A stretch of DNA of 64,000 nucleotides from Flavobacteriaceae bacterium (lineage in GTDB: Bacteria; Bacteroidota; Bacteroidia; Flavobacteriales; Flavobacteriaceae): contig JAVEUZ010000010.1 of the NCBI GenBank assembly GCA_034005285.1, positions 619 through 64,618 of the forward strand, written 5' to 3'. Under the pieces are notes generated by a model. That model was not told the DNA's origin and ran no database searches. It was given only the letters and a program-made list of their open reading frames with translations. The stretch's first letter is position 1. The number at the start of each line of letters is the position of its first letter. Made by a program: the position numbers and the translations under genes. Shown piece after piece: positions 5,311-63,565 of this stretch.

Positions 5311-6255
5311 TTAATATGTACACGGGCAGTTACTGATTCCCTGAAACAAATCCAACCCTATCGTAACCATGTGCGTACCCGAATTATAACTGAATAATTC
5401 ATTCATGGTTACCTGATAGGAATAGGCAAAATAAAAATTCTTCATTTTTAATCCGCCCATCGGACCAATATTTAAAGGCTCCAGCATCTGGTCATTCAGG
5501 AACCGATAAGATATTCCTGCCCAATAATAATCTTCAAAGTTATTAAAACGTACTTTCAAATTCAAATCTGTTGTAGATCTTCCGTCGCTTTCATAATATT
5601 GAAAATATCCTGAGGGTTCAACATCTATATCGTTATTTCCAACATTTCTTATTGTATATCCTGTATAAACTTGATAATTTCTAAGGGCAAGCGGTTCAAT
5701 ACCAGTAAACATATCCACATCTTTATTTAAAAGATTTGCTGCTGTAAAATTCATAAAAAATCCGTTTTTACGATATAAAATTCCTACATCAAAATTATGG
5801 TTTATCAGTCGTCTGTCATCAGTAACAGCCATATCTGTTCCGTTAAAATTTTCAATATCTATACGAAATTGATTCAGATTATACGAAATACCAAAAGACA
5901 GAAACTGTTCGGCATATCTATCTATTATGATATGATGGGCAAAAGACACTTTTCCGCCTGATTGACGTGTGTTTCCGTTGCTGTCATTATAAAGATAAAT
6001 TCCGAAACCCGATTTGTCATGAATTCTCATATCGGCTGCTAAAGTCATATTTTGAGGAGCATCTTTAATGCCAACCCATTGAGTGAATCCATTGGCTCTT
6101 ACTTTTACATAATCGCCTATTCCTGCATAGGTTGGGGCAATAATAAATGGGTTATCGGCTAGATATTGAGTAAAAGAAGGAAGCATTAGTTCCTGTGCTT
6201 TTGTTGGCATAAAAGCCAACGTAAAGAATACGAAAATTGGGGTAAATTTTTTCAT
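5311..6255 (-). CDS. sprF: PorP/SprF family T9SS outer-membrane beta-barrel (SprF)
   Basis: Signal peptide, then QELMLPSFTQYLADNPFIIAPTYAG, QWVGIKDAP and GTHMVTIG signatures. Lies directly downstream of the sprB-like gene. Confidence 0.88.
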   Translation of the reverse strand: MKKFTPIFVFFTLAFMPTKAQELMLPSFTQYLADNPFIIAPTYAGIGDYVKVRANGFTQWVGIKDAPQNMTLAADMRIHDKSGFGIYLYNDSNGNTRQSGGKVSFAHHIIIDRYAEQFLSFGISYNLNQFRIDIENFNGTDMAVTDDRRLINHNFDVGILYRKNGFFMNFTAANLLNKDVDMFTGIEPLALRNYQVYTGYTIRNVGNNDIDVEPSGYFQYYESDGRSTTDLNLKVRFNNFEDYYWAGISYRFLNDQMLEPLNIGPMGGLKMKNFYFAYSYQVTMNELFSYNSGTHMVTIGLDLFQGISNCPCTY

Positions 6256-6277
6256 AATTGTAGGTTTTTAGGGGAAA

Positions 6278-60963: not shown

Positions 60964-62124
60964 ATGTCACAAGAATTAAAATCAGTAGAGTACGGATTAG
61001 AAAAGATTTTTGAAGGAGCACAAGACTTCCTTCCAATTTTAGGAACAGATTACGTTGAGTTTTACGTAGGAAATGCCAAACAAGCGGCACACTATTACAA
61101 AACCGCTTTTGGGTTTCAATCAGAGGCTTATGCGGGTCTGGAAACAGGCTTAAAAGACAGAGTTTCGTATGTGATAAAACAAGATAAAATCCGTATGATT
61201 TTGACAACAGCTTTGAATTCGCAATCACCAATTGGAGAACACGTTAAAAAACACGGTGACGGAGTAAAAGTTATTGCTCTTTGGGTAGAAGATGCAAGAA
61301 AATCTTTTGAGGAAACCACCAAAAGAGGGGCAAAATCTTTTATGGAACCAACGGTTACTTCAGATGAAAACGGAGAAGTAATACAAGCGGGAATCTATGC
61401 TTATGGAGAAACGGTTTTTATGTTTACAGAACGCAAAAACTACAAAGGGCTTTTTATGCCGGGTTATGTAAAATGGGAATCGGATTACAATCCTTCACCA
61501 ACAGGACTAAAATTCATCGACCACATGGTAGGAAACGTAGGTTGGAATCAGATGAATGTTTGGGTAAAATGGTTTGAGGAAATAATGGGATTTGTAAACT
61601 TCTTGTCGTTTGATGACAAACAGATTACAACAGAATATTCTGCGTTGATGTCAAAAGTAATGGCAAATGGAAACGGAAGGATTAAATTCCCGATTAACGA
61701 ACCGGCAGAAGGAAAGAAAAGATCTCAGATTGAGGAATATTTGGATTTTTACGAAGGAGAGGGAGTGCAGCATATTGCTGTAGCAACTGATGATATCATC
61801 AAAACAGTTTCGGATTTAAAATCACGCGGAGTTGAATTTTTGTCCGTTCCTCCACAGGCGTATTATGATGCAATTCCCGAAAGATTGAAAGACCACATGC
61901 ATAAGTTTAAGGAAGATGTAAAAGAGCTTCAGAAACTCGGAATTATGATTGATGCTGACGATGAAGGTTACCTACTTCAAATCTTTACCAAACCAGTAGA
62001 AGACCGCCCAACTTTGTTTTACGAAATCATTCAAAGAATGGGAGCAAGAGGATTTGGAGCAGGAAACTTCAAAGCTTTGTTTGAATCTATCGAAAGAGAA
62101 CAAGCACTAAGAGGTACGCTATAA
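60964..62124 (+). CDS. hppD: 4-hydroxyphenylpyruvate dioxygenase
   Basis: HGDGVK, IDHMVGNV, KFPINEP, GVQHIA, YLLQIFT and GFGAGNFKALFESIE. Confidence 0.96.
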   Translation: MSQELKSVEYGLEKIFEGAQDFLPILGTDYVEFYVGNAKQAAHYYKTAFGFQSEAYAGLETGLKDRVSYVIKQDKIRMILTTALNSQSPIGEHVKKHGDGVKVIALWVEDARKSFEETTKRGAKSFMEPTVTSDENGEVIQAGIYAYGETVFMFTERKNYKGLFMPGYVKWESDYNPSPTGLKFIDHMVGNVGWNQMNVWVKWFEEIMGFVNFLSFDDKQITTEYSALMSKVMANGNGRIKFPINEPAEGKKRSQIEEYLDFYEGEGVQHIAVATDDIIKTVSDLKSRGVEFLSVPPQAYYDAIPERLKDHMHKFKEDVKELQKLGIMIDADDEGYLLQIFTKPVEDRPTLFYEIIQRMGARGFGAGNFKALFESIEREQALRGTL

Positions 62125-62147: not shown

Positions 62148-62174
62148 AAAAACAAGCCATAAAGGCTTGTTTTT
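62148..62174 (+). terminator. Intrinsic terminator after hppD
   Basis: AAAAACAAGCC-ATAAA-GGCTTGTTTTT(TT). Confidence 0.8.
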
Positions 62175-62243
62175 TTGCTAATGTTTAGTTAAAATAGCGT
62201 TTTTATTGAAAAAATTTCAAAACAAACAGCTATCTTTGCACCG

Positions 62244-62361
62244 TAAAGAGGAAGAGTGGTTACTTTCTTTTTATAAGTGAAAATTTTTCATAATTTATAG
62301 TTTTTTGGTTAGTTAATAGCATAAAACCCGATAATATATCGGGTTTTATGCTGTTTTTTTT
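62244..62361 (+). ncRNA. Candidate sRNA with its own promoter and terminator
   Basis: -7 box TATCTTTG at 62231-62238, a 5' hairpin, a U-rich core, then a perfect 15-bp hairpin (62318-62352) with a T-run. No ORF on +. Confidence 0.55.
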
Positions 62362-62398
62362 CGACTATATTTTAGCAATAAAAATAACTTGATTCAGG

Positions 62399-63565
62399 TT
62401 AATAACTCATCTCTATAATATTCTTAATTTTTTCTAAGGTTACTTGTCGGTTTTCGCCTAGACCTTTCCAGCCTCTTTCTTCAAAACGTTTTAGAATAAT
62501 TTCAGAAGTTTTTTCATAATCTGAAATATATTCAGATAGTTTAGTATTCATTCCCATTTTATGTAAAAACAATACTGTTTTTTCTATAGCTTGAGTTGCT
62601 TTTTCATCAAGTGAACCTTCTGTAATGTTCCAAACACGTTCGCCATATTGAGCCAATTTTTCTTTTTTTACATCAAACATAACACGGTATAGATTTGGAC
62701 CAATGACAGCCAATGTTCTCGCATGGTCTATTTCGTATAGTGCCGTCAGTTCATGTCCAATCATGTGTGTTGCCCAATCCTGCGGAACGCCTTTCTGAAT
62801 GAGCCCGTTAAGAGCCATTGTACAACACCACATAAAGTTGGAGGCCAGTTTATAATCAGAAGGGTTTTCAACAACTTCCGGTCCGATTTGAACTAATGTT
62901 TGCAAAATACTTTCTGAAAATCTATCCTGCAAAAAAGCGTCGGTTAGATAAGTAAGATATTGCTCCATGACGTGTATAAAAGCATCAACAACCCCATTTT
63001 GCAGTTGTCTTTTAGGTAGAGATTCTATAACAGTTGGGTCGCACACTGAAAACTTTGGAAACAAAGCACTACCGCCTAAAGTAAGTTTTTCTTGAGTCGT
63101 TTCAATAGAAATAACAGCCCCGGAATTCATTTCGCTACCAGTTGCCGGTAAGGTTAGAACTGTTCCAAACGGAACTACTTTAGAAACATCTTTAAACAAT
63201 ATTTTTTTTCTAAGAATATCTAACGTATCTCCGTCAAAATGTACTGCTCCAGAAATAAATTTCACGCCGTCTATTACACTTCCACCACCAACAGCCAGTA
63301 TGAAACCGATTTTTTCTTTTCGGATAATCTTTACAGCTTTCATCAGGGTTTCATATTTTGGATTTGGCTCTATTCCGCCAAATTCAACAATTTCAACACC
63401 ATCAAGAGCAGATTTTACCTGATTATAAATTCCGTTCTTAAAAATGCTTCCACCGCCATAAGCCAATAGTATTTTGATGTTTTTGGGGATTAATTCGTCT
63501 AATTTTTGTATTTGACCTTTCCCAAAAATATAATGCGTTGGGTTATATAATTCAAAGTTTAGCAT
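62399..63565 (-). CDS. Iron-containing alcohol dehydrogenase (YqhD/BdhA family)
   Basis: YGGGS, GIEPNP, LAVGGGSVIDG.K, TLPATGSEMN and HMIGHELTA. -7 box (CAAAGATA on +) at 63588-63595. Confidence 0.92.
   Translation of the reverse strand: MLNFELYNPTHYIFGKGQIQKLDELIPKNIKILLAYGGGSIFKNGIYNQVKSALDGVEIVEFGGIEPNPKYETLMKAVKIIRKEKIGFILAVGGGSVIDGVKFISGAVHFDGDTLDILRKKILFKDVSKVVPFGTVLTLPATGSEMNSGAVISIETTQEKLTLGGSALFPKFSVCDPTVIESLPKRQLQNGVVDAFIHVMEQYLTYLTDAFLQDRFSESILQTLVQIGPEVVENPSDYKLASNFMWCCTMALNGLIQKGVPQDWATHMIGHELTALYEIDHARTLAVIGPNLYRVMFDVKKEKLAQYGERVWNITEGSLDEKATQAIEKTVLFLHKMGMNTKLSEYISDYEKTSEIILKRFEERGWKGLGENRQVTLEKIKNIIEMSY

Follow-up and report, generated by a model that had tools for sequence, protein, structure and literature searches.

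Small RNAs (sRNAs) of the RsaE/RoxS class in Firmicutes pair with Shine-Dalgarno (SD) regions by means of UCCC or C-rich motifs. In Bacteroidota, Bacteroides thetaiotaomicron reportedly has trans-acting sRNAs such as GibS (Ryan et al. 2020).

The closest described relative of the locus presented here is Rfp18 of Flavobacterium psychrophilum, from a transcriptome study of that species which yielded 85 new RNAs (Guérin et al. 2021, ISME Commun 1:33; PMC9723704). This RNA of 97 nt (THC0290_N_0179, 284741-284837, + strand) was mapped experimentally by its transcription start site (TSS) and by RNA-seq. Its promoter is of class SM1 (sigma-A), hppD (283454-284614) lies directly upstream on the same strand, and read-through transcription between hppD and Rfp18 is on record as segment THC0290_N_0178. 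The RNA folds into four stem-loops, the last of which is the terminator. Array signals were low in exponential phase (log2 about 10), reached up to 14 in late and stationary phase, and went up to 15.5 on agar. Rfp18 is conserved within the genus Flavobacterium and was detected by RT-PCR in F. columnare. Its CopraRNA targets include four metalloproteases and a T9SS adhesin, and in all of the published IntaRNA/CopraRNA duplexes positions 33-66 of the sRNA are opposite about -25 to +8 of the mRNA, as in AACCAACC...AAAUUAUGAAAA for the M43 protease FP1619. A Δrfp18 mutant had less mRNA for Fpp1 and THC0290_0300 in stationary phase; its growth and the total protease activity it secreted did not change (Guérin et al. 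2021). A literature search on Rfp18 returned no follow-up study beyond this paper.

Rfp18 shares with the GibS-type sRNAs an intergenic location in a member of the Bacteroidota, a TAnnTTTG promoter, an intrinsic terminator, Hfq independence, and (predicted) pairing near start codons. The sequences are unrelated, and Rfp18 was found only in Flavobacteriaceae. With the RsaE/RoxS class there is no homology in sequence or structure; what is alike is a conserved unpaired motif complementary to the generic ribosome-recruitment signal of the lineage, with many potential targets. The RsaE/RoxS class mirrors the SD sequence, whereas Rfp18 mirrors the A-rich, SD-less start context of Bacteroidota together with the AUG.

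The locus downstream of hppD

In the window, i.e., the whole stretch of 64,000 nucleotides that was analysed (contig JAVEUZ010000010.1 of a Flavobacteriaceae bacterium), an Rfp18-like element sits in the 274-bp spacer between hppD and an ORF resembling an Fe-alcohol dehydrogenase (Fe-ADH) (Table 1).

Table 1. Features of the sRNA locus and its neighbours (positions in the window)
Feature	Position	Strand	Basis or remark
hppD	60964-62124	+	Stop at 62124; upstream neighbour
hppD intrinsic terminator, ACAAGCC-ATAA-GGCTTGT plus T-run	~62148-62176	+	Sequence read; hairpin also in Rfam-search alignments
Bacteroidota sigma-A -7 box TATCTTTG (TAnnTTTG, perfect)	62231-62238	+	Motif match only
Predicted transcript, putative Rfp18 orthologue, about 117-119 nt	62243-62361	+	Promoter, fold, homology
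Stem-loop 1, 12-bp stem, loop AGUGGUUA	62243-62274	+	Fold prediction and covariation
Stem-loop 2, weak, GUGAAA/UUUCAU, CAU inside	62277-62291	+	Fold prediction
Conserved, mostly unpaired U-rich core AAATTTTTCATAATTTATAGTTTTTTGGTTAGTTAATAGCATAAAA, predicted mRNA-pairing region	62281-62326	+	Alignments, target statistics
CAU, complement of the AUG start codon in predicted duplexes	62289-62291	+	Sequence, published duplexes, register scan
GGUUAGUUAA, equivalent of the published GGUUGG seed	62307-62316	+	Comparison with published Rfp18
Intrinsic terminator, whole	62315-62361	+	Hairpin scan, fold, covariation
Terminator stem, perfect 15 bp, AGCATAAAACCCGAT / ATCGGGTTTTATGCT	62318-62332 / 62338-62352	+	Extended to 19 pairs by scan
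T-tract, eight T	62354-62361	+	After terminator stem
Fe-ADH-like ORF	62399-63565	-	Downstream neighbour, convergent

The gene of the sRNA and hppD are set apart by the terminator of the latter. Judged from the sequence, the TSS of the sRNA probably lies at about 62243-62245. At 62315-62361 a hairpin followed by a T-tract is read on the + strand only. The folding energy of the predicted 119-nt RNA is -38.5 kcal/mol, as compared to -16.8±2.8 for dinucleotide shuffles (z = -7.8). An earlier note, made from the letters alone, had postulated an independent + strand sRNA gene here, with a -7 box past the hppD terminator and a predicted RNA of ~115 nt ending in a 15-bp hairpin plus U-tract. All of this is borne out: the box is preceded by the hppD hairpin and T-run, the stem and its eight T are in place, the promoter, the covariation of the hairpins and the terminator are conserved, and the F. 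psychrophilum orthologue was mapped by TSS and RNA-seq.

The sRNA gene is no new element, as it was published in 2021 as Rfp18, and the region at ~62243-62361 (+) is almost certainly its orthologue. The window RNA and the published one can be aligned over their entire length, 48 of 55 positions in the central region are identical to those of F. psychrophilum Rfp18, and the core is identical (41/41) to that of the F. johnsoniae homologue printed by Guérin et al. (2021). Homology of the core, synteny with hppD, the TAnnTTTG box, and stem-loops ending in an intrinsic terminator are all found in the window. Likeness to the F. psychrophilum RNA extends from the core sequence, the place and strand after hppD and the sigma-A TAnnTTTG promoter to stem-loop 1 with its GUGGUU loop, the U-rich core with CAU, the GGUUNGUUAA seed, the intrinsic terminator, and the predicted pairing over -25 to +8 of mRNAs for exported proteases and adhesins. 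There are differences as well. The seed reads GGUUAG in the window and in F. johnsoniae, and GGUUGG in F. psychrophilum; stem-loop 2 is degenerate in the window; and the terminator of the window RNA is another, longer hairpin, which takes the conserved AGCAUAAAA into its stem. According to the predicted fold, the third stem-loop of published Rfp18 is incompatible with this extended terminator. Downstream, the window has the convergent Fe-ADH-like gene and F. psychrophilum a same-strand gene.

At permissive E-values, the best Rfam hits at the locus scored 23-25 bits against gathering thresholds of 45-60, which is sub-threshold noise, and with the whole window as query only a tRNA scored above threshold. 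As Rfp18 has no Rfam entry, a family could be built from the alignment and covariance model described below.

Structure, conservation and distribution

When 24 congeneric genomes were searched at the DNA level (BLAST), 22 had a match, which began at the -7 box and stopped where the terminator starts; identity over the 41-nt core (62286-62326) was 93-100 % in these 22. This conservation in congeners argues that the element is real and not a product of chance. A covariance model built from 21 sequences found a match in all 24 congeneric genomes, with one copy in each. The same model had matches in 106 of 300 genera of Flavobacteriaceae and none in other families of Flavobacteriales. Rfp18 thus extends beyond Flavobacterium to about a third of the sampled genera of the family, usually beside hppD. 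Homologues from other genera are plainly related, e.g., ...GGGGTGGTTCCC...TTTTTCATAATTTAAAG..TTTGGTTGGTTA... Linkage to hppD (within 1.5 kb upstream and on the same strand) was seen in ~50 of 62 homologous loci, other genera included, while ~12 had no hppD nearby. The linkage is old since it is kept in genera in which HppD is only 64-68 % identical. At least 120 species records under the names Flavobacterium, Paenimyroides, or Myroides contain the exact 41-mer. This 41-mer was also seen on MAG contigs labelled Limnohabitans sp. (JASGCW010000014.1) and Dyadobacter sp. (JBQGDD010000174.1), which suggests that these contigs are mis-binned. Two Rfp18-like copies in tandem, separated by 180-320 bp, are present in a few genera of the family (G273:C7:237925-238321; G129:C1:245387-245673; G086:C123:29495-29924); Flavobacterium genomes have one.

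In all 20 congeneric loci that were aligned, the TAnnTTTG box is present at the same distance. Box, core, and GUGGUU loop are constant across these loci, whereas the stem of stem-loop 1 and the terminator vary in sequence with their pairing kept. Covariation was tested by explicit pair counts on an Infernal-fitted alignment of 57 distinct sequences. Stem-loop 1 is paired in 94 % of the cells, with double changes in all six of its counted pairs, and the terminator in 99 %; compensatory changes are present in all 14 pairs of the two elements, 12 of which were already in the model, so that the alignment leans towards them. None of 500 shuffles reached the observed values, and pairing dropped to 32-53 % in slid controls. 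RNAalifold did not recover stem-loop 1 from a MAFFT alignment, in which indels put its stem out of register. Stem-loop 2 has 7-9 bp in most other species, with CAU in or beside its loop. In the predicted fold of the window RNA a weak local hairpin can engage the CAU, and the terminator stem sequesters AGCAUAAAA.

The loop of stem-loop 1, GUGGUU (62255-62262), and the G-rich 5' arm (AAGGGG/AAGGAG) are near-invariant across genera, with the stem below them covarying. The arm bears a loose likeness to an SD sequence. Past the Rfp18 terminator, at a distance of 10-25 nt, most Flavobacterium loci have a conserved second TAnnTTTG box, TACATTTGGAA, which presumably drives a same-strand downstream gene; this arrangement has been lost in the window.

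Complementarity of the core to translation start sites

The start profile of 2103 genes (called crudely at the first ATG of each non-shadowed ORF with 90 aa or more; these ORFs cover 85 % of the genome) shows the SD-less context of Bacteroidota, A-rich at -14 to -11, with an A at -3 and an A-rich second codon. When its CAU is placed opposite the AUG, the reverse complement of the core shows T at positions -1 and -2 and A from -3 to -5 as well as from -10 to -15, with AAA as codon 2; the UUAACYAACC box falls at about -17 to -26 in this mirrored start region. With the ATG left out, the log-odds score of the complement is 9.7, which corresponds to the 97th percentile of genuine starts (3.0±4.0). 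No flank shuffle out of 5000 reached this score, and it peaks in the correct register. The core thus mirrors a high-scoring translation-initiation region (TIR) in an SD-less lineage.

Duplexes were predicted with RNAduplex, which ignores accessibility, between a 40-nt core (62281-62320) and the region from -32 to +12 of all 2103 starts. The real core gave 72 sites at or below -18 kcal/mol and 32 at or below -20. Dinucleotide-shuffled cores (40) gave 6.2±4.4 and 1.5, respectively, and shuffles in which CAT was fixed (28) gave 8.4±4.5 and 2.1; no shuffled core of either kind reached 72. When the real core was paired with 2066 internal ATGs, 16 and 2 sites were obtained. The effect was weaker in a second genus, for which its own Rfp18 core and 400 kb of genome were used: 13 sites at or below -20 kcal/mol as compared to 3.9±2.4 (0/60 shuffles), and 22 at or below -18 as compared to 11.3±4.7, a value reached by 2 of the 60 shuffles. 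Complementarity to the start context is therefore more than AT composition and is statistically real. The analysis adds this controlled demonstration of an anti-TIR signature, along with the covariation support, the distribution across the family and the linkage to hppD given above, to the published description of Rfp18. As the complementarity is real, start-site regulation without SD pairing can be tested with one small conserved RNA, for which F. johnsoniae is a tractable laboratory species.

The same results bear on what the earlier note had read from the core, namely complementarity to an A-rich start region plus ATG-AAA, with exported proteins starting with MKK as targets. It had also named, as an outcome that would speak against the idea, target scores no better than those of composition-matched controls. 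The real scores exceed these controls (72 starts as compared to 6-8 at -18 kcal/mol), the TIR likeness is confirmed by the 97th percentile and by the published duplexes over -25 to +8, and MK-starting exported proteins are enriched among the strong predicted duplexes. Signal-peptide-like N-termini make up 67 % of the sites at or below -18 kcal/mol and 39 % overall (odds ratio 3.3, p = 1.6e-6), and 78 % of those at or below -20; part of this enrichment is due to the MK start. A genuine sRNA gene was thus recognisable from raw sequence, and its anti-start-site logic had been read correctly. The part of the note that singled out sprF stood only in that the 12-mer TTTTTCATAATT (62284-62295) is indeed present a second time, at 6248-6259, antisense to ATTATGAAAAA of the sprF start. 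The complement of this 12-mer, AATTATGAAAAA, has 25 copies in the genome, of which 16 fall on called gene starts, and sprF ranks 136th of the 2103 starts (-16.1 kcal/mol). As a specific target of Rfp18 it is discarded for these reasons; it is an ordinary background member and not a lead.

Other genomic sites that BLAST matched to the core were considered as possible paralogues. All six that were inspected are antisense at gene starts, and they are therefore regarded as candidate targets and not as copies.

The 20 best predicted targets include, by Pfam, an M43 peptidase at C44 91735-93369 (-) (rank 16 of 2103), an M23 peptidase, a TonB-dependent receptor at C68, GldL, a Por_Secre_tail protein (T9SS cargo), a TolC-like OEP, FixP, and an FtsL-like protein; some are cytoplasmic, e.g., a C-5 cytosine DNA methylase. 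The top published Rfp18 target also belongs to the M43 family (Guérin et al. 2021). The three M43 genes of the genome rank 16, 379, and 1078 of the 2103 starts, which is modest support since the best of three genes would by chance rank 16th or higher with a probability of ~2 %. The second of them (rank 379) has CUAACCAAAA in its leader, a 10-nt seed match. A search for M36 proteases in the genome returned no match, with an uninformative control.

The start region of gldL, cacttaactaactaaaatttttaaattATG (contig C20, minus strand, GldL_N domain), ranks within the ten best predicted partners (-21.9 kcal/mol). Such a pairing would tie Rfp18 to the T9SS/gliding motor by way of gldL and not of sprF. 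A cluster of paralogous genes for small exported proteins (MKNI...), located at G000 C38:1929, 3407, 4155, 4916, and 6029 (+), has near-identical leaders, TAATTAATAAAAAAAATAAAATTATGAAAAAT, that count among the top antisense matches of the core.

Mode of action and alternative explanations

Taken as a whole, the region at ~62243-62361 very probably specifies a trans-acting sRNA of ~100-120 nt of the Flavobacteriaceae that is transcribed by sigma-A and terminated Rho-independently. Base-pairing of its core at TIRs, as modelled by the duplex predictions, is fairly likely. Over about -25 to +8, the core would pair with a set of mRNAs, most of which would encode exported or envelope proteins, M43-type metalloproteases included, and the pairing would alter the translation and/or stability of these mRNAs. 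By analogy with F. psychrophilum, in which Rfp18 is induced under these conditions, it would act mainly in stationary phase and during growth on surfaces. Occlusion of the 30S site or TIR would predict repression; the published knockout points to stabilisation or protection of two mRNAs, or to an indirect effect. As these two target mRNAs go down and not up in Δrfp18, plain start-codon masking is at most a candidate mechanism. The near-invariance over ~40 nt is greater than pairing by a seed would require, possibly because of some other constraint; with the invariant GUGGUU loop it goes beyond a simple seed model and so leaves room for a protein partner.

Rather than a small regulon, the core could serve a global anti-start-site RNA that, on accumulating, dampens the translation of a large share of the MK-starting exported proteins. 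The rank of its reverse complement among genuine TIRs would fit this, as would the strong predicted duplexes, 9-15 times commoner than for shuffles, the ~140 starts that pair at or below -16 kcal/mol with exported proteins enriched among them, and the very high abundance of the orthologue on agar (log2 about 15). We consider it possible but rather unlikely: Δrfp18 is without a phenotype in growth or bulk proteolysis and has lower amounts of the target mRNAs (Guérin et al. 2021), enrichment in the second genus is only two- to threefold, and stoichiometric cover of more than 100 mRNAs is demanding. The box that pairs with UUAACYAACC lies outside the general TIR profile, which favours a selected subset. 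It is quite doubtful, too, that Rfp18 is a family-wide "anti-Kozak" RNA, abundant in stationary phase and surface growth, that globally retunes the exported proteome at the level of translation or stability, its invariant core having evolved as the mirror of the SD-less initiation signal plus the AUG-AAA of signal peptides. If this were true, T9SS cargo, proteases, TonB receptors, and GldL would be retuned, well beyond a handful of proteases. The near-invariant loop above a covarying stem, and a stretch of 40 near-invariant nt that exceeds the need of a seed, might also be explained by an RNA that binds a protein, the GUGGUU loop and the UGGUUGGUUAA tract forming repeated GGUU sites that titrate an RNA-binding protein, with complementarity to TIRs being secondary. 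With only about three GGUU motifs and a purely hypothetical partner protein this is improbable, and it leaves the register-specific TIR match, with CAU opposite AUG, unexplained.

That the region is no gene of its own, being the 3' untranslated region or terminator of hppD or the leader of the downstream gene, is highly improbable. The tight linkage to hppD across genera and the published hppD-Rfp18 read-through (segment THC0290_N_0178; Guérin et al. 2021) could be taken in its favour, but the region has its own conserved TAnnTTTG box, with the TSS mapped in F. psychrophilum (Guérin et al. 2021), in the window hppD is followed by a terminator of its own, and ~12 of the 62 loci have no hppD nearby. 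As the downstream gene is convergent in the window, the region cannot be its leader, and this variant is ruled out. The minus strand reads ...AACCAAAAAACTATAAATTATGAAAAAT... across the core, an ideal start context with an ATG opposite the CAU behind a perfect TIR, and might accordingly be thought to encode a small peptide. The frame, however, has six codons (MKNFHL*) and varies in length and sequence, from 6 to more than 12 codons, in the aligned species; promoter and T-tract are on the + strand, and the orthologue is transcribed from the strand of hppD. This micro-ORF, which is unconserved and has neither promoter nor terminator on the minus strand, is rejected, and the peptide can be virtually dismissed in favour of the + strand sRNA.

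The Fe-ADH-like gene, which lies on the minus strand and stops at 62399, lacks a separate terminator in 62362-62398. When the hairpin it shares with the sRNA is read on that strand, AUUAACUAACC comes next and not a U-tract. Read-through from this gene along the minus strand (62361-62243) would give an RNA that is fully antisense to Rfp18.
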